A stretch of DNA of 64,000 nucleotides from a virus. How positions within the stretch are numbered: position 1 is the first letter of the stretch; each line of letters opens with the position of its first letter. The DNA is taken from positions 44,557 to 108,556 of IMG/VR virus record IMGVR_UViG_3300035670_000069. One strand, 5' to 3'. The notes under the pieces were generated by a model, which had not been told where the DNA came from, ran no database searches, and was given only the letters and a program-made list of their open reading frames with translations. Below are positions 3,711-63,467 of this stretch, piece by piece. The translations under genes were made by a program, and so were the position numbers.

Positions 3711-4929
3711 TACAGAGTCTAAGTTAATATCAGCCGTCCTTAAAGATAAGCAAGCACATGTAATGCTTCAGGCCAACGTCGATGGAATATTAAAAACTCA
3801 CTTAGATGTATGGCAGTTTATTAGAAAATACTATGAGACTAATGGGACAGTTCCGCCAACAGATCTGGTGGTTGAAAAGTTTAGGGACTTTGAGCCAGCA
3901 GATGGTGTAGGTGCCACCAAACATCATCTTGAAGAGTTACAGTCTGAATATTTAGTAAATAGTTTAAAAGATATCATTCGTGCTGCAGCAACAGATGTTC
4001 AGGGTGGTTTGGGAGTAGAGGCGCTAGAGACATTAATTACTAAAACTGCAGAATTAAGAAAAAATACTGCAGCAATTAGGGACATTGATGTAACAGATTT
4101 AGACTCTGCAATCGGGTATTTTGAAAATCTAAAAAAACAACAAGAGGCTGGTGCACTTGGAATTAAAACTGGCTTGCCAGGATTTGACAACTATTTACCA
4201 TCTGGAATCATGCCAGGACAGTTAGGAGTTTTTCTTGCATATCCAGGCATAGGAAAGTCATGGCTGTCTCTCTATTTCGCCGTACAGGCTTGGAAACAGG
4301 GTCGTAGCCCAATGATCATAAGCCTTGAGATGTCTGAGGTTGAAGTTAGAAATCGTGTCTTTGCTATTATGGGCGAAGGAGTTTGGTCACATAGAAAATT
4401 AAGTGCTGGACAGATTGAACTAGATATGCTTAAGTCGTGGCACGAAAAACATGTTAAGGGTAAGCCAGAGTTTCATATTATATCTAATGATACAGGTGGA
4501 GACATTACTCCTTTAGTTTTAAGGGGAAAGATAGATCAATATAAACCAGATTTTGTTATTGTAGATTACCTACAACTTATGTCTCCAAACCAAAAGTCTG
4601 ATAATGAAACGATTAGAATGAAAAATTTATCTCGTGAACTAAAGTTAATGGCAATTTCAGAAGAAGTTCCTATTATTGCTATTTCTTCTGCTACTCCTGA
4701 TGATGTAACTAAACTTGAAACCGTTCCAACTCTTGGTCAAACTGCATGGTCAAGACAGATTGCCTACGATGCTGACTGGGTATTAGCATTAGGTCGTGGC
4801 ACAAATAGTGATATTATAGAGTGTGTTTTTAGAAAGAATCGTAATGGTTTTATGGGAGAATTCTTAGTCCAGGCCGATTTTGATAAGGGATATTACAGAT
4901 ATAAAGATTATGAAGATAAGTCAGTATAA
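3703..4929 (+). CDS. dnaB: Replicative DNA helicase, DnaB family
   Basis: Walker A AYPGIGKS, SLEMS, VIVDYLQLM, DAD and KNRNG motifs. Confidence 0.95.
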   Translation: MNNTESKLISAVLKDKQAHVMLQANVDGILKTHLDVWQFIRKYYETNGTVPPTDLVVEKFRDFEPADGVGATKHHLEELQSEYLVNSLKDIIRAAATDVQGGLGVEALETLITKTAELRKNTAAIRDIDVTDLDSAIGYFENLKKQQEAGALGIKTGLPGFDNYLPSGIMPGQLGVFLAYPGIGKSWLSLYFAVQAWKQGRSPMIISLEMSEVEVRNRVFAIMGEGVWSHRKLSAGQIELDMLKSWHEKHVKGKPEFHIISNDTGGDITPLVLRGKIDQYKPDFVIVDYLQLMSPNQKSDNETIRMKNLSRELKLMAISEEVPIIAISSATPDDVTKLETVPTLGQTAWSRQIAYDADWVLALGRGTNSDIIECVFRKNRNGFMGEFLVQADFDKGYYRYKDYEDKSV

Positions 4930-38486: not shown

Positions 38487-38766
38487 ACTTAAATGGAAAG
38501 ACAACGCATCATGTATAGATTACGATACAAATATATTTTTTGAAAAGTATGAAGACGATGAAGGTTTAAGGCCAGCAATAGACAATCTTTGTCAGGCCTG
38601 CCCCGTAGTAAAAACATGTTTTGCTGTAGGAGTTTCTAGTAAAGAATGGGGCGTTTGGGGAGGGGTCTACCTTGAAAGTGGAAATATTTCAAAAGAATAT
38701 AACTCTCATAAAAAAGATTCAGATTGGTCAAACATTTGGCAAATTTTAACATTGGATAGAGATTAA
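38479..38766 (+). CDS. whiB: WhiB-family transcription factor
   Basis: W...A.C...IFF...C..CPV..TC...GVWGG; four Cys. Confidence 0.9.
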   Translation: MHKLKWKDNASCIDYDTNIFFEKYEDDEGLRPAIDNLCQACPVVKTCFAVGVSSKEWGVWGGVYLESGNISKEYNSHKKDSDWSNIWQILTLDRD

Positions 38767-58077: not shown

Positions 58078-58094
58078 AGTTCTCCTCATTGTAT

Positions 58095-58149
58095 CAAAAA
58101 AGTGGTGACAGCGCAAGGGCAAGAAAGGATTAGAGCCTGCGCTGCCACC
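58095..58149 (-). terminator. Long hairpin plus U-tract with anti-SD loop, overlapping the next promoter
   Basis: GGTGGCAGCGCAGG/CTTGCGCTGTCACC then ACTTTTTT; TTGCGC-N17-TACAAT overlaps. Confidence 0.7.
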
Positions 58150-58171
58150 TGGACGGGGATGACCAGTCCCC

Positions 58172-58537
58172 TTATGAAGTAGCCGTCGCTACTAAATTAT
58201 GGTAATTAATAAAATCTTTAATAGAGTGTTCTCCACCAACCCTACTATCGACAGTATTATTTACAAGATTAATTATGATTGGCTCGTCCATAAAACCTAG
58301 GTCATTAGGATTACAAGCATAGATACCAAAGCCTGTCTCATCTAAAATGCTATCTTTAATTAAATAACTAATAGCCATACGAGTAGCATATGCATGGTCT
58401 CTCATCTCAATACGTGGCATTGCATGCTGCAGGGCTGCTGCCAGGTCTTCATACATGTCATATTCACCCCAGTGGCTGTATAAGGCCACAGCCTGGTCTT
58501 TTGACTGCTTAAAAACGAATGTACAACGTGCTCCCAT
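58172..58537 (-). CDS. Hypothetical early protein
   Basis: MGAR..LYSHWG; promoter TTGACA-N17-TACACT at 58570-58598; GAAAGGA RBS. Confidence 0.7.
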   Translation of the reverse strand: MGARCTFVFKQSKDQAVALYSHWGEYDMYEDLAAALQHAMPRIEMRDHAYATRMAISYLIKDSILDETGFGIYACNPNDLGFMDEPIIINLVNNTVDSRVGGEHSIKDFINYHNLVATATS

Positions 58538-58609
58538 TGTGGGTCCTTTCGATAGTTGGGTTTTCTTCTAGTGTATCAAATTGTAGGTCTAATGTCAACT
58601 GTTCGTACA

Positions 58610-58888
58610 TTATTCCTTCAGATCTGCAATTGCAAATGATAGTTGGTATGTCAATCTGTAGAGGTCTGCTAGTGCCTCCATATACCCTGACAGCCATAGT
58701 CTATCTACAGTATCTGAGTAGTCTTCATCTGAGCCAATCTCTTCTGATTGCTGCAGCAATGGATTTAGTTCTTGTTCTGTTTCATACATCCAGTTCTTAA
58801 GTTCACCATGGATGATATCAAGACCTGATATGCCTGCTTGAACAGACTTAATTAGATTATCTGATAATTCATTTGGCTTGGGCTGCAT
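58610..58888 (-). CDS. Hypothetical early protein
   Basis: GGAG RBS before MQPKP. Confidence 0.6.
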   Translation of the reverse strand: MQPKPNELSDNLIKSVQAGISGLDIIHGELKNWMYETEQELNPLLQQSEEIGSDEDYSDTVDRLWLSGYMEALADLYRLTYQLSFAIADLKE

Positions 58889-59078
58889 GCTCTTCTCCAA
58901 TCTGTATAAAATGGCGGGTAGCAATAATCTGTCCTGCCAACCAGTTGTATTCAAACTCTAGGTCTCTATAGTCTTTAGAATTCTCATCTAGTTTTTCCAT
59001 TTCTTCAGCAACTTCTGCTTGGTCCTGCTCAATAGATACAAGATGTATCTTCATATACTCTAATAAATAATCAGACAT
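58869..59078 (-). CDS. Hypothetical acidic early protein
   Basis: 69 aa, overlaps both neighbours. Confidence 0.6.
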   Translation of the reverse strand: MSDYLLEYMKIHLVSIEQDQAEVAEEMEKLDENSKDYRDLEFEYNWLAGQIIATRHFIQIGEEHAAQAK

Positions 59079-59790
59079 TTATCTCATCCATTCTATAGTC
59101 TGGTACATACTCTTCAGTCAAGTATACTTTATGCTCCTCGCATTCTGCAACTGCTTCTAAATCTGCCTCGCCTAAATAGTGACAAGAATCACAGATTTCT
59201 CCACAATCGTTATCACAATACTGTAATGTGTTGAGTGAATCACAGTCCCTGCATTTATTATCGTAGGATTCTGTTTCCATAGATTCGCCATTCTCTATGA
59301 CTACCTCGCCACCCCAACCAGTCTCTTCCTCAAAGGATAGAGTAAATACTAGATTAGGATACTGCTCAGATAGTTTGACGATAGCCTCAACAGGTGGGGA
59401 CCATGCTGTATTGAAGCGGTATGAAATAAAGTCCTGACCTTCATCAGTCAACTCAGTCTCAGGATACTTATCATCCTCATTGACACATACATCCCATTTA
59501 GTTCCCCAGTTACGCACATTCCAGTCATACCAGTGGTCTGAATCAAAGGATAGGCCCTTAGATAAGTCTGTCTCAGGTTGTGGGCCATAGTAGGCTTCTA
59601 GGTTTGTTGGCTTGACAATGTTCCAGAATGCAAATACAGGGTTGGGATAGTGAAACAGTTTCTTTTCCATTTGTCCTGTTTCTCTATTGTAAGTATCATG
59701 CATTACCTCAAAGGGGGTATTGAGTTGGGCTTTGAGAGCAGATACGTCTCCACCTGAAATGTCTAGGTGGTTGTAACACCAATTGGGCAT
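59071..59790 (-). CDS. DUF1281/YubB-like protein
   Basis: MPNWCYN..WYDW...NWGTKWD..FNTAWSPP..YP.L.F..EE; Cys-rich tail. Confidence 0.8.
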   Translation of the reverse strand: MPNWCYNHLDISGGDVSALKAQLNTPFEVMHDTYNRETGQMEKKLFHYPNPVFAFWNIVKPTNLEAYYGPQPETDLSKGLSFDSDHWYDWNVRNWGTKWDVCVNEDDKYPETELTDEGQDFISYRFNTAWSPPVEAIVKLSEQYPNLVFTLSFEEETGWGGEVVIENGESMETESYDNKCRDCDSLNTLQYCDNDCGEICDSCHYLGEADLEAVAECEEHKVYLTEEYVPDYRMDEINV

Positions 59791-59818
59791 TGGATTCCTT
59801 TCTATAGGTCTTTGTATA

Positions 59819-59847
59819 ATTCTAGCAAAATCTTATGGGGTTGTCAA
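59819..59847 (-). promoter_or_regulatory. Early-type promoter
   Basis: TTGACA-N17-TAGAAT with extended TG. Confidence 0.75.
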
Positions 59848-60003
59848 CTATTGAAAGTGTCCCTCTACTATTAATCCTTGTAAGAAGTCAAAGGCTTTGT
59901 ATAGATCCCGTTTGGTTTCAGGGTCATCGGCGGGTATATATTTAGTAGCCTCATTAATAGAGATCTGCATATCTACTACATCTGTAATGGTATAGCCTAA
60001 CAT
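59848..60003 (-). CDS. Hypothetical early protein (not in ORF track)
   Basis: 51 aa MLGYTITDVV...; AGAAAGGA RBS. Confidence 0.65.
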   Translation of the reverse strand: MLGYTITDVVDMQISINEATKYIPADDPETKRDLYKAFDFLQGLIVEGHFQ

Positions 60004-60024
60004 ATTTTCCTTTCTGTTATATTT

Positions 60025-60053
60025 ATTATAGCAATTTCAGGGATTTAAGTCAA
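60025..60053 (-). promoter_or_regulatory. Early-type promoter
   Basis: TTGACT-N17-TATAAT with extended TG. Confidence 0.8.
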
Positions 60054-60101
60054 GTCATCGTAATTAATTTCTGGAAAAATCTAATTAATATCTTAATCAG
60101 G

Positions 60102-60117
60102 TGTGAGAAAAATCACA
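60102..60117. promoter_or_regulatory. CRP/GlxR-consensus site
   Basis: TGTGA-GAAAAA-TCACA, perfect consensus. Confidence 0.55.
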
Positions 60118-60150
60118 TGCTCGGGGGATTTTTTTGATCAATAAAAAATA

Positions 60151-60177
60151 GAGCAGTTTAGACTCATGCTCAGGAGT
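60151..60177 (-). ncRNA. Pseudoknot motif, copy A
   Basis: ACTC-CTGAGCAT-GAGT-CTAAAC-TGCTC. Confidence 0.7.
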
Positions 60178-60186
60178 TGAATTAGA

Positions 60187-61188
60187 TTAAACTAATTCTA
60201 GAGTTGAATTAACAACTTGCAACAAGCGATTTTTTTCTGCTGTGATAGCAGGGTCAAAACCACTTGAACCCATTAGGATTGATTCAGTAAGACCACGCTT
60301 ACCTCCACGATACCAATCGATTCTTTCTGTAAGTGCATTCCAAGCACCCCAAGCAGAACCAGCAATCATGCCATTGAATTGACCTGTGTAGATGTCATTG
60401 ATAGTGTCGATTTTATTCTCCCACTTTTTCAATGCACCCTTTTTGGTTTCATCAGGCTTTGGATACGCAGCAAGAACAATATCATTGAATTGTTGCGCTG
60501 TGATTTCTTTCTGAATCATCAACTGAGCCATTTTAGAAAACTCGTCCATGTATGCATTAGCAACACCTAGAGCCTCACGTGCTTGTTGCACTTTACCGTC
60601 AGCAGATTGGGTGTGACGAATCTTGAATGATTGCTTTACGCCACGCTTACCTCTACCAAGAGCAACGGCAAGAGTGTTAGCACACACAACACGAACTGGG
60701 GTCACACTTGCTTGAATAGCAACTGAACCATCGTGTGATGTATTGACAAGAAGATAAGTCTTGACAACATCTGCAACACCGCTAGGGTCTAGAACGGTTT
60801 CACGCTCAAGAGCAAGAGAGCCGAAAACTACACGACCACCCTTGAGAGAGCCAGCAGTCTCCCAACGACCTCCACCATCAAGAATTGCATCACCAAAAGT
60901 GAATAGGTCTTCATTTTGTAGTGGAACATAACGCTCACCTACAACACCCAAAACATCTGTCTGAGAATTATCAAACGGATTAGTGCGAACAACATATTGA
61001 TAAGATTTATCTGATGAGAGATTTTCTGGAATCACTACATCTTCTAATCTAACATTCCAATTCTGGAGATTAGCAAGAGACAACATTTCTGATGTTGAAA
61101 CTTCCTCATTAAATACGGTTCCTAAACCATGCCAAGCAGGTTCACGGAAACTAGCGAATGACTTTTCTGATTCTAATTCATGAGCCAT
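60187..61188 (-). CDS. DUF932 family phage/plasmid protein
   Basis: PAWHGLG, LGVVGERY.P.QN, ETAGSLKGG, NTSHDGS, RVVCANTL, IRHT. Confidence 0.9.
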   Translation of the reverse strand: MAHELESEKSFASFREPAWHGLGTVFNEEVSTSEMLSLANLQNWNVRLEDVVIPENLSSDKSYQYVVRTNPFDNSQTDVLGVVGERYVPLQNEDLFTFGDAILDGGGRWETAGSLKGGRVVFGSLALERETVLDPSGVADVVKTYLLVNTSHDGSVAIQASVTPVRVVCANTLAVALGRGKRGVKQSFKIRHTQSADGKVQQAREALGVANAYMDEFSKMAQLMIQKEITAQQFNDIVLAAYPKPDETKKGALKKWENKIDTINDIYTGQFNGMIAGSAWGAWNALTERIDWYRGGKRGLTESILMGSSGFDPAITAEKNRLLQVVNSTLELV

Positions 61189-61220
61189 TTTTTCTTCCTT
61201 TCTGTTTGTTTATTATCTAA

Positions 61221-61249
61221 AGTTTAGCACAATGGACTGACAAAAGCAA
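61221..61249 (-). promoter_or_regulatory. Early-type promoter
   Basis: TTGCTT-N17-TAAACT with extended TG. Confidence 0.7.
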
Positions 61250-61325
61250 ATCCTGGAATTCGTGATCTTTTTCTTAAACTTCTTAAAACGGACATATAGT
61301 ACAAAAGCCCCTCGGGAAATTTTTA

Positions 61326-61354
61326 GAGCAGTTTACATGGACGTGCTCAGGTCC
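61326..61354 (-). ncRNA. Pseudoknot motif, copy B
   Basis: GGAC-CTGAGCAC-GTCC-ATGTAAAC-TGCTC. Confidence 0.7.
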
Positions 61355-61435
61355 CTCACGGTCTCTTTGAAAGAAAGGATGAAAGAAGAGAGCCGTGCAC
61401 ATTGCGGGGCCTTTCATGATCCCCGCAAATTTTAT

Positions 61436-61846
61436 TTAGATGTCAACACTGTCGACACTAGATGAAACATGTGTGACATGGTCCGTGTCATATACAATTG
61501 CGTCGAAATCAATATCATTGATTATGTCTTCAGCATTCTCACCTGCAGGCACATTCAATGTTATATAGTAAGTTACAGAGACTTCAGCCTCTACTTCTTT
61601 TGTTAGTTCGAATCCACCAATCTCTGCCAGTTCCAAGGCCTGCGCCTCGTTGATGGCAATATTCTCTAGATTCTCTATGGTCCAATCACGTAGTGATTCT
61701 GACATTGCATTCAATGCAGCAGATGTACTAAAGTCACGCTGCACGACACGAGCATGAGACTCTTCTACAGTCTTTACTCGCTCCTCTAATTCGGTAATTC
61801 TATTACGAAGGAATTCCTCCGTCATATGTATTTCATTAGTTTCCAT
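61436..61846 (-). CDS. Hypothetical acidic early protein
   Basis: GAAAGGA RBS; very acidic. Confidence 0.7.
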   Translation of the reverse strand: METNEIHMTEEFLRNRITELEERVKTVEESHARVVQRDFSTSAALNAMSESLRDWTIENLENIAINEAQALELAEIGGFELTKEVEAEVSVTYYITLNVPAGENAEDIINDIDFDAIVYDTDHVTHVSSSVDSVDI

Positions 61847-62108
61847 TTGTTATATCCTTTCCAAGTTCATCAAATTCTTTGATATCATCAATCATAGCGT
61901 CCATTTGTTCTTCTGTCAATAGGACATTAGTGACAAGTGTTGCTGTTAGTGATGAGAGTAGAGCAGAATACTCAAACAATGCTCTTGCGAAATCATTATC
62001 TGACATTTCATTTCTTGTGTGAAATAAGTGAGAAGCGATGCCCATTGTCATTTCGTCATGAACTGCTTCTGCTGTTGCTTGTTGTATTGCTATAGCGGTT
62101 GCTATCAT
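61836..62108 (-). CDS. Hypothetical early protein
   Basis: AGAAAGGA RBS before MIATA. Confidence 0.7.
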   Translation of the reverse strand: MIATAIAIQQATAEAVHDEMTMGIASHLFHTRNEMSDNDFARALFEYSALLSSLTATLVTNVLLTEEQMDAMIDDIKEFDELGKDITNGN

Positions 62109-62133
62109 CTTAGTTCCTTTCTTTCTAATTCTA

Positions 62134-62174: not shown

Positions 62175-62200
62175 GAGCAGTTTAGAGTCATGCTCAGGAC
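62175..62200 (-). ncRNA. Pseudoknot motif, copy C
   Basis: GTC-CTGAGCAT-GAC-TCTAAAC-TGCTC. Confidence 0.7.
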
Positions 62201-62277: not shown

Positions 62278-62700
62278 TTACAAGTATCTTGCGATAGCGT
62301 TGTAAGTAGAAGTAGAAACTACTTCCTCGTCTGTCATCTTGAGAATACGGACAGCGTTCTCAATTTCCTCAATCATTTCCTTATACTGCCAATCATGGTA
62401 AGTAGTAAAATCCTTTTGAGGTTCATCAGGTAGTTCAATACTTCCAGCAGGTAAGCAGAAAGATACTTGGATTTCGCCATTGTATCTCTTGTGAGCAGAT
62501 AAGTCAGTTGCCTTAGAGATAGCAGATACCGCAAGTTTTGCGACTTCCTTGTTATGCTTCTCCTCAAGTTTCTTGAACTTAGCCTCGTTGCTTGCTTGAT
62601 TAGCCTTATCTTTGTTGATTTGGGCTAACTTAGTTTCTAATGCCTTGATTACTTTGGTTGTAGCAATCTTGACATTTATGGCTTTTCCATTTCTTGCCAT
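62278..62700 (-). CDS. Hypothetical early protein
   Basis: AGAAAGGA RBS; own promoter. Confidence 0.75.
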   Translation of the reverse strand: MARNGKAINVKIATTKVIKALETKLAQINKDKANQASNEAKFKKLEEKHNKEVAKLAVSAISKATDLSAHKRYNGEIQVSFCLPAGSIELPDEPQKDFTTYHDWQYKEMIEEIENAVRILKMTDEEVVSTSTYNAIARYL

Positions 62701-62731
62701 TGTTATCCTTTCTTAGTGGGTTGTTATTTAT

Positions 62732-62762: not shown

Positions 62763-62791
62763 GAGCAGTTTTAGTAGTCATGCTCAGGACT
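62763..62791 (-). ncRNA. Pseudoknot motif, copy D
   Basis: AGTC-CTGAGCAT-GACT-ACTAAAAC-TGCTC. Confidence 0.7.
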
Positions 62792-63242: not shown

Positions 63243-63467
63243 TTGTTTTCCTTTCTGTTTGGGTCTTAGTATTAGTTTAGCAGAAAAATACCAAAAATAC
63301 AATTCAGGGAGAGTTTCTAGGACATTTTTAATGTGATCTTAATTACACTCTCTTAATTAGTACAAAACGGACATTTCGCCCCCTCGGGATTTTTGCGGGG
63401 GATCACTGCAAAAAGAACATGCACATGGCCCACCACAAAAAGAAAATAAGAAACTTACTTAGTTCCA

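Follow-up and report, generated by a model that had tools for sequence, protein, structure and literature searches.

In a 108.5-kb phage genome, two intergenic hairpins with unrelated stems, H1 and H2 (Table 1), display in their loops the complement of a Shine-Dalgarno (SD) sequence used by genes of the same region. We take the phage to be an uncultured freshwater one; its WhiB gene shows that the host is actinobacterial. The window is the 64,000-nucleotide stretch of this genome that was analysed.

Shared loop motif and two Shine-Dalgarno classes

The motif AUCCUUUCUU has only two copies on the minus (gene) strand of the genome, at 58121-58130 and 61371-61380, and both are loop positions of H1 and H2. 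The third copy, on the plus strand (62705-62714), coincides with the ribosome-binding site (RBS) for the gene starting at 62700. In shuffled sequence, a total of 0.44 copies was expected by chance. The original prediction had placed one loop motif in two different-stem minus-strand hairpins, at about 58104-58149 and 61357-61397, and had described the loops as complementary to the RBS of at least six genes. Both statements were borne out: of the nine genomic copies of AGAAAGGA, six are those minus-strand RBSs, and two of the other three are complements of the H1 and H2 loops. The display of an RBS complement by the two loops is confirmed as a real observation beyond chance, because the H2 loop is invariant with covarying stems and CCUUUC is enriched in hairpin loops, as described below.

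GAAAGGA is used by three more genes of the block, with starts at 58537, 61846 and 62975. Altogether, GAAAGG-type SDs were found at 13 genes, nine of them in the minus-strand block at 58.5-63.3 kb, while GGAGG-type SDs were found at 18 genes outside this block. In relatives, sense-strand GAAAGG was an RBS in nearly every case, and the only non-RBS copy on the sense strand of the region is AUGAAAGG in the loop of a third hairpin, H0. A genome-wide duplex scan for longer, specific targets of the loops returned RBSs only; the best sense-strand match of the H2 loop was the GAAAGAAAGGA RBS of the gene starting at 62108 (-17 kcal/mol).

Table 1. Minus-strand hairpins, start regions and associated features (positions in the window)
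Feature	Positions	Strand	Evidence or remark
H1, GC-rich hairpin with 14-nt open loop	58104-58149	minus	folding energy; homologous hairpins in all relatives
H1 loop with AUCCUUUCUU (58121-58130), anti-SD motif	58121-58134	minus	unpaired probability 0.8-1.0
U-run (58095-58100), then extended -10 box TGnTACAAT (58087-58095) of next promoter	58087-58100	minus	kept in relatives
Hairpin A, between stop codon and H1	58155-58171	minus	folding
121-aa gene (phrog_31860), SD GAAAGGA at 58544-58550, H1 in 3′ UTR	58172-58537	minus	ORF, PHROGs
RBS AGAAAGGA of gene starting 59790	59796-59803	minus	same-class RBSs at 60008-60015 and 63249-63256
RBS AGAAAGGA of DUF932 gene (60187-61188)	61196-61203	minus	about 180 nt downstream of H2
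Pseudoknot copy B	61326-61355	minus	1-3 nt past H2 in every homologue
H2, hairpin with 18-nt loop (61368-61385) containing CUUUCAUCCUUUCUU	61357-61397	minus	invariant loop, covarying stem, G·U pairs
H0, hairpin with loop containing AUGAAAGG	61402-61428	minus	stem covaries, three stem types; loop conserved
Start region GGAAAGGAU (61854-61862) of 136-aa gene, 9-bp pairing with H2 loop	gene 61436-61846	minus	H0, H2 and pseudoknot form its 3′ UTR
RBS GAAAGAAAGGA of first gene (start 62108) in same operon as 136-aa gene	62115-62125	minus	11 contiguous bp with H2 loop
RBS AAGAAAGGAU of gene starting 62700	62705-62714	minus	exact 10-nt complement of both loops

At GAAAGG start regions the loops gave predicted duplexes of -10.5 and -10.9 kcal/mol, versus -9.7 for the 16S tail; at GGAGG start regions the order was reversed, with -7.3 for the loops versus -11.6 for the 16S tail. 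The loops match specifically the GAAAGG-type SD class of the block, not the GGAGG class. The original prediction had proposed 16S-tail mimics that mask RBSs. Complementarity to one RBS class stood up (about -10.7 versus -7.3 kcal/mol for GGAGG), but general mimicry and masking of host SDs did not: the loops have no CCUCC core and would therefore be poor mimics of the 16S tail in general and poor masks of ordinary host SDs. Phage early mRNAs are likelier targets than host SDs.

H2 and its 3′-untranslated module

Loop conservation with stem covariation, the check named for the original prediction, was found at H2. About 35 distinct homologues, one set of which was anchored solely on H0 and the pseudoknot, all had the same 15 loop bases, while the stem, which consists of helices of 5 and 6 bp, had compensatory, two-sided changes at 11 of 11 pairs. 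The covariation amounted to 110 cells versus 37 in shuffles, and none of 500 shuffles was equally high. In a second register, the stem was 97.8% paired with compensatory changes at eight of nine pairs. The RNA was assigned to the gene strand because of its G·U pairs, 12 of which were found on the sense strand of the homologues versus about one on the antisense strand. H2 is thus, as judged from this pattern of substitution, a selected sense-strand RNA hairpin.

Together with H0 and the pseudoknot, H2 forms a conserved 3′-UTR module of the 136-aa gene. The H0 loop complements the 5′ half of the loop of H2 and could take up part of that loop. The 61.4-kb hairpin indeed adjoins pseudoknot copy B (Table 1), and copy C is followed by CACCUCCU, both as originally described; among relatives, CCUCC followed the pseudoknot in 17 of 327 contexts. 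No U-run follows the H2 stem, as an intrinsic terminator would have; the pseudoknot follows instead. When a 151-nt context was folded thermodynamically, an alternative helix took up half of the H2 loop; this helix is not conserved and clashes with the pseudoknot. Loop detection based on minimum free energy under-calls H2 owing to this helix. That H2 regulates the DUF932 RBS in cis was rejected; this type of RBS is common without H2, which is missing in many phages whose DUF932 gene bears the same RBS.

In clade A, the start region of the 136-aa gene reads GGAAAGGAU and the 3′ loop AUCCUUUCU. In the sister clade B, at 13 of 17 loci, the start region of the gene reads GGCCCCC(A)AUG, and a hairpin beginning at the stop codon has a GGGGGC loop. 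In L013 and L014, start region and 3′ loop pair via a G·U. The start region and the 3′ loop therefore appear to have changed jointly between the clades, in two to three independent events only. Such a joint change favours RNA-RNA pairing, either as a fold-back like that of icaR (see below) or as a class-wide antisense, over a protein decoy resembling the 16S tail. With C5 in the start region and G5 in the loop of clade B, the common principle would be complementarity to start regions of the same or a neighbouring message rather than likeness to 16S rRNA.

H1 as a probable terminator-promoter junction

The main role of H1 is probably that of a terminator, fused to a promoter. Its GC-rich stem of 12+3 bp lies 22 nt after the stop codon of the 121-aa gene and is followed, three bases past the stem, by T6 (58095-58100). 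With the GC-rich stem, the immediate U-run and the upstream stop codon, H1 has the textbook features of an intrinsic (Rho-independent) terminator, probably that of the 121-aa gene, overlapping the next promoter. The TTG of the -35 box is part of the 3′ arm of H1, and this TTG, the T-tract and the -10 box were conserved across relatives. A simple terminator scanner gave no match at H1, the loop being longer than 8 nt. Folding was stronger for the minus strand (-25.7 kcal/mol versus -20.6 for the plus strand) and the stem has one G·U pair, in agreement with the earlier proposal that G-U pairs favour the minus strand there. The 116-nt region of H1 had a folding z of -4.1.

Conservation of the loop, seen at H2, failed at H1: the anti-SD loop was kept in only about 7 of 25 lineages, not in most homologues. 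Relatives L025, L233 and L260 had the same start region but no anti-SD loop. The variants of the H1 loop co-varied with their own start regions only inconsistently. In L195, ACCUUUCU of the H1 loop exactly complements AGAAAGGU of its own start region; in the present genome, H1 and the RBS of the gene starting at 58537 can form 7 bp. For the neighbouring hairpin A, the loop found in relatives, UUGGGUCC, complements a GGACCCA that the 121-aa and 239-aa genes have in their start regions; the window has only a weak match of this kind.

Recurrence of the loop motif

SD and anti-SD are both bound to the 16S sequence, and complementarity by itself is weak evidence. The first broad pattern scans gave mostly chance matches, which were filtered away. 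On the sense strand, CCUUUC was in a hairpin loop in 25 of 80 contexts, compared with 38 of 1073 for other permutations of C3U3, a 9-fold enrichment (Fisher p = 8e-15, with contexts that are phylogenetically non-independent). The loops belong to at least five non-homologous hairpins: H2, H1 (with three variants of the loop), a hairpin at the 121-aa ORF end, a tandem pair in L035 and a single hairpin in L403. At the H1 position, at least six lineages had independently different loops containing CCUUUC, and in eight further lineages UCCUUUC was carried by the adjacent ORF-end hairpin, whose stem covaries. In an unbiased search for 6-mers enriched in loops, CCUUUC had the highest ratio (23x); family-specific loops were similar, so that this ranking is not decisive alone.

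Proposed mechanism

H1 and H2 are sense-strand hairpins of the 3′-untranslated portions of putative early messages. Both H0/H2 and H1 follow stop codons, inside mRNA 3′ ends, and no promoter-like site was found directly upstream of either; a small RNA processed from these ends is conceivable. Each hairpin holds a single-stranded pyrimidine loop, the complement of the (A)AGAAAGGA(U) SD region of the block, which would base-pair with start regions in rivalry with the 16S tail. Translation of the GAAAGG class, and perhaps also its stability, would be lowered, and genes of the GGAGG type and leaderless genes would be spared. H1 would in addition end transcription, overlapping the next promoter. 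We consider it an even question whether the loops pair with SD regions of the GAAAGG class and damp their translation.

Two modes are conceivable. In one, a message would fold back on itself as in icaR; the putative H2 transcript has matches of 11 bp and 9 bp. In the other, the loops would act in trans on other messages of the GAAAGG class. Anti-SD motif and complementary SD lie on one putative transcript for H2 with the starts at 62108 and 61846 and for H1 with that at 58537, as judged from the positions of promoters and terminators. A more far-reaching possibility, which we find doubtful, is a protein-free translational timer in this phage group. The start regions of each temporal gene class would bear a "barcode" of their own (GAAAGGA, or SD plus C5), met by an anti-barcode in 3′-end loops of the same messages; the build-up of early RNA, or terminating ribosomes that melt the hairpin at the stop codon, would shut off the hairpin's own class while GGAGG-led and leaderless genes go on.

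Alternative explanations

The loops might instead serve structure or stability. H0 and H2 could kiss via AUGAAAG/CUUUCAU and stack on the pseudoknot in a nuclease-resistant or processing-defining fold at message boundaries, the SD complementarity being a by-product. The conserved H0 loop with its complementarity to H2 and the consistently short spacing between H2 and the pseudoknot fit this explanation. It is nevertheless unlikely: the L007-type H2 homologues (n = 10) have no H0 and keep an identical loop, the remaining three pseudoknot copies are without H2, the motif is borne by H1, the ORF-end hairpin and the L035 hairpins without a partner or pseudoknot, and the G5 loop and C5 start region of clade B are left unexplained. 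Another explanation is that the loops imitate the ribosomal tail as decoys for a tail-recognising protein, such as ribosomal protein S1, a maturation factor or a toxin of the MazF-mt3 type, a kind that cuts the anti-SD. The actinobacterial 16S tail has a terminal CU, and UCCUUUCU corresponds to the last eight bases but one of this tail. The anti-SD of Actinomycetia is listed as CCUCCUUU (PMC10783764). H1 variants CACCUUUCUU and H2 UCAUCCUUUCU resemble the tail minus two to three core bases, and CCUCC follows some pseudoknot copies. A mimic of the tail would, however, have a CCUCC core and a UUUCU tail, whereas the core is missing from every loop and UCCUUUCU is all that the loops share. At the corresponding position, clade B has GGGGGC, which is unlike 16S and complementary to its own start region, the flanking genes yielded no candidate binding protein, and a bS21 gene was looked for and is absent. 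We regard a decoy as very unlikely.

For H1 alone, the loop may be incidental to a terminator-promoter junction and drifting, its identity with the H2 loop being due to chance or to recent convergence without function. Most homologues have a G-rich loop of the GUUUGUGGUGGGC type at the same place, and the overlapping -35 box accounts for the sequence conservation of the stem. We think this somewhat improbable, as independently different CCUUUC loops in at least six lineages, with eight more carrying UCCUUUC in the ORF-end hairpin, and the near absence of other C3U3 permutations from loops argue against drift, and 14 nt is unusually large for a terminator loop. A function of the plus strand or of the DNA itself, with AAGAAAGGA as the RBS of a plus-strand ORF or the inverted repeats as operators, is scarcely credible. 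An ATG follows the motif immediately (61379) and a 67-aa plus-strand ORF is present (61262-61465), but motif and ATG are 0 nt apart, the antisense ORFs of homologues have lengths of 4-65 codons and shifting frames, and 15 of 48 homologues have no sense ORF. Covarying arms around a fixed spacer are the reverse of an operator pattern, and the G·U pairs point to the minus strand. Neither strand has a conserved ORF that uses the motif; a translated plus-strand ORF with the motif as its RBS had been named as a finding that would contradict the original prediction. Coding as the cause of the invariant loop was likewise rejected, because neither the 44-aa sense ORF (61283-61417) nor the antisense ORF is conserved.

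Relation to known systems

At the Rfam gathering score, only tRNAs were found. At E <= 5, the 57.8-63.6 kb region gave only chance-level snoRNA and RAGATH matches and none to a small-RNA family with anti-SD loops. A phage database gave only distant matches to Streptomyces BE-cluster phages, in the DUF932 gene only, and no RNA-binding or other function was found for the 121-aa and 136-aa proteins in Pfam, PHROGs and a protein atlas.

If the pairing of loops and start regions is real, it would be a compact, RNA-only form of post-transcriptional control over a whole temporal gene class. It would account for the unusual SD of the putative early block, which pairs with the extreme 3′ end of 16S rRNA, versus GGAGG elsewhere, and would extend to phage gene classes a 3′-UTR-to-SD pairing known for single bacterial genes. 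A loop that complements a class-specific start region would also be a simple sequence signature for finding such regulators in uncultured phages. A literature search for this combination returned, among the matches listed, no title or abstract describing it. To our knowledge, the host phylum lacks Hfq and ProQ.

In icaR of Staphylococcus aureus, initiation is blocked when a short pyrimidine motif of the 3′ UTR base-pairs with the mRNA's own SD (PMC3868564). The H2 transcript resembles it in its 9-bp and 11-bp SD matches and in the joint change of start region and 3′ loop between clades. It differs in belonging to a phage of an actinobacterial host, in having the motif in a hairpin loop with covarying stems, and in matching a whole gene class rather than one gene; evidence from RNase III and translation pertains to icaR, while the present case is known from sequence.

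Like small RNAs with anti-SD loops (of the cuckoo/CcsR, 6C and RsaE type), the present hairpins combine a conserved C/U-rich loop motif with variable stems. Cuckoo RNAs (CcsR/alpha-r14) of Alphaproteobacteria have two to four hairpins with a common C/U-rich, anti-SD-like loop on freely varying stems (PMC4615179). They are, however, stand-alone small-RNA genes with CCUCCUCCC loops, whereas the loops here carry UCCUUUCU without a CCUCC core or an Rfam match, on hairpins scattered in mRNA 3′ ends, apparently without a promoter of their own. The 6C sRNA of actinobacteria binds RBSs through C-rich loops without a chaperone (PMC6486639). The host phylum is the same, and the present hairpins would share with 6C the direct pairing of C-rich loops with purine-rich RBSs, with no help from Hfq or ProQ. 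As a small-RNA gene of the chromosome, 6C has C-rich loops that act on G-rich sites, and it is unrelated to H1 and H2 in sequence and in Rfam. The endoribonuclease RegB of T4 inactivates early phage mRNAs in a class-specific way, by their SD motif GGAG (PMC1702504). RegB is a protein nuclease aided by S1, whereas the agent proposed here would be RNA pairing.

Genome, host and gene block

The virus record comprises 108,556 bp with 35% GC and is complete according to CheckV; the window is its right 64 kb. The host was treated as an uncultured actinobacterium because a WhiB protein is encoded in the record, the closest relatives with a name are Streptomyces BE-cluster phages (with a match in the DUF932 gene only), and metagenome assemblies contain dozens of close relatives. 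From 57.9 to 64 kb, every gene is encoded on the minus strand, with strong sigma-70-like promoters in front, and this block is presumably 'early'. Across the relatives, the DUF932 protein is retained very widely, with 73-97% identity.

Coordinates of the features discussed
Feature	Position	Strand	Description
WhiB-family gene	38494-38667	+	PF02467, 43.9 bits; marker of actinobacterial phages
H1	58104-58149	-	15-bp GC-rich stem, one G.U pair, 14-nt loop predicted open
Hairpin A	58155-58171	-	between 121-aa gene and H1
Api92-like ferredoxin-like domain protein gene	59071-59790	-	PF18406
DUF932 protein gene	60187-61188	-	PF06067, phrog_1221
Pseudoknot copies	60151-60177, 61326-61355 (copy B), 62175-62200, 62763-62791	-	window
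H2	61357-61397	-	5-bp and 6-bp helices, 18-nt loop
H0	61402-61428	-	loop AUGAAAGG
Clade B hairpin and start region	~4385-4440 and ~3950-4000		L006, L009-L012, L015-L023

Conservation of H2

Downstream of the 136-aa gene lie the hairpins H0 and H2 and pseudoknot copy B, in this order, 180-235 nt upstream of the DUF932 start. Pattern scans of viral and metagenome collections yielded about 35 distinct H2 sequences. Fifteen loop bases were invariant, and they stayed so in a set for which H0 and the pseudoknot were the only anchors and no loop match was required. The stems differed widely, with two-sided changes at 11 of 11 pairs in alignment A1 of the H2 homologues. Cells with two-sided changes numbered 110 there compared with 37 in shuffles (0 of 500 shuffles as high), and the covariation score was 0.67 versus 0.24. 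In the other alignment, A3, 97.8% of the cells were paired and compensatory changes were found at 8 of 9 pairs. Twelve G.U pairs were counted for RNA of the gene strand and about one for RNA of the opposite strand. The check originally proposed, loop conservation together with stem covariation, was passed by H2. A conserved ORF across the H2 loop was sought in sense and antisense, and neither was conserved among the homologues. The invariant loop, the covarying stems, the G.U strand bias and the lack of a conserved ORF show that H2 is a selected sense-strand RNA hairpin and that its loop sequence matters.

When a longer stretch is folded, part of the H2 loop can be drawn into a helix; this helix is not conserved. 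H2 is restricted to one clade (clade A), and its putative targets are spread wider.

A pairing of 7-8 bp is possible between the H0 loop and the 5′ half of the H2 loop, and the H0 loop might serve as a built-in competitor of real SDs. Ten H2 homologues lack H0. In this region the H0 loop is the sole sense-strand GAAAGG other than the RBSs.

Two SD classes and predicted loop pairing

A limit on any argument from complementarity is that SD and anti-SD alike depend on the 16S sequence. The whole genome has two sharply partitioned SD classes: GAAAGG-type SDs precede 13 genes, of which nine belong to the minus-strand block (58.5-63.3 kb), and GGAGG-type SDs precede 18 genes, nearly all outside this block and on the plus strand. 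Practically every sense-strand GAAAGG in the relatives is an RBS, the H0 loop being the sole regular exception. With GAAAGG start regions, the predicted duplexes of the two loops (-10.5 and -10.9 kcal/mol) equalled those of the 16S tail (-9.7 kcal/mol) in strength; with GGAGG start regions, the loop duplexes were weak (-7.3 kcal/mol, versus -11.6 kcal/mol for the tail).

The best predicted sense-strand partner of H2 is the RBS of gene 62108 (11 bp). H2 is also predicted to pair over 9 bp with GGAAAGGAU, the RBS of the 136-aa gene itself; the AU at the end of this RBS is particular to the gene and has its match in the AU of the H2 loop. These best partners probably share H2's own transcript. 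The RBS of gene 62700 is an exact 10-nt complement of both the H1 and H2 loops.

As had been noticed, both loops contain AUCCUUUCUU; on the minus strand this motif occurs nowhere but at 58121-58130 and 61371-61380. Its counterpart AGAAAGGA has 9 copies in the genome; six are the RBSs originally named, and of the remaining three, two are complementary to the H1 and H2 loops. In loci not selected for the motif, 25 of the 80 distinct contexts of sense-strand CCUUUC placed it within a hairpin loop, compared with 38 of 1073 for the other nineteen C3U3 permutations pooled (Fisher p = 8e-15; the contexts are not independent). These CCUUUC loops belong to at least five non-homologous hairpin families: H2, H1, an ORF-end hairpin, two tandem hairpins in locus L035 and a single hairpin in L403.

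Start region and 3′ loop in the sister clade

Seventeen loci carry homologues of the 136-aa gene without H2 (clade B). In 13 of these, the start region consists of an SD, GGCCCCC and AUG, and in the same 13 a hairpin starting at the stop codon displays a GGGGGC loop, the exact complement of this start region. Start region and loop pair through a G.U in two further loci. Since the two elements in clade B are complementary to each other and both unlike those of clade A, start region and 3′ loop appear to have changed together between the clades, although in two or three independent events only. It is mainly this joint change that leads us to prefer RNA-RNA pairing over a protein decoy. From these sequences we conclude that what the clades have in common is a loop complementary to the start region rather than a loop resembling 16S rRNA. 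The original observation holds and has been extended, and its interpretation is supported in part: the hairpins are complementary to GAAAGG-class start regions, but mimicry of the 16S tail as the principle does not accommodate the GGGGGC loop.

C5 runs directly 5′ of AUG form a start-region class in clade B, where 15 of 42 C5 runs fall within the spacers of start regions. Such runs precede 2-3 genes per 8 kb.

Comparison with known systems

An Rfam search assigned the H1/H2 region to no family. Cuckoo RNAs follow an equal design principle, in which one anti-SD-like loop recurs on hairpins whose stems are free to vary (PMC4615179). In actinobacteria, loops of the 6C sRNA bind an RBS with no chaperone involved (PMC6486639), which resembles the pairing predicted for H1 and H2. 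The fold-back of the icaR 3′-UTR onto its SD is alike in location and co-change (PMC3868564). T4 RegB would be a functional analogue through class-wide inactivation of early SDs (PMC1702504).

H1 and its surroundings

The folding energy of H1 is -25.7 kcal/mol for the minus strand and -20.6 kcal/mol for the plus strand. On its 3′ side are T6 and then an extended -10 box, and its 3′ arm holds a TTG at the position expected for a -35 box. As TTG, T-tract and -10 box are retained in all relatives, H1 is best read as an intrinsic terminator fused to the next promoter, and the overlap with that promoter explains the conservation of the stem sequence. Conservation does not extend to the loop, which is G-rich in most relatives. 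A CCUUUC-containing H1 loop was found in about seven distinct lineages (this window, L001 type, L004, L035, L135, L186 and L195), in several different sequence contexts. In another eight lineages, UCCUUUC lies instead in the loop of the adjacent hairpin, where the 121-aa ORF ends, and the stems of this hairpin covary.

In eleven loci (L040, L042-L046, L055-L058 and L065), the promoter after H1 lies ~130-150 nt after the 121-aa gene, with its -10 box positioned 6 nt upstream of the following gene's ATG, so that a leaderless message is expected in these relatives. The counterpart gene in the window (start 58077) retains GAGGAG between -10 box and ATG.

The loop of hairpin A is UUGGGUCC in most relatives (L001, L002, L025, L186 and others). 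This is the complement of GGACCCA in GAAAGGACCCAC, the start region of the 121-aa and 239-aa genes; in this window the match of hairpin A to GGACCCA is 4 bp only.

Dispersed pseudoknot

A U-run follows copy A of the pseudoknot in the window, so its second helix may be a terminator hairpin. Among 327 distinct contexts in the relatives, a U-run comes after the pseudoknot in 96, and CCUCC does so in 17.
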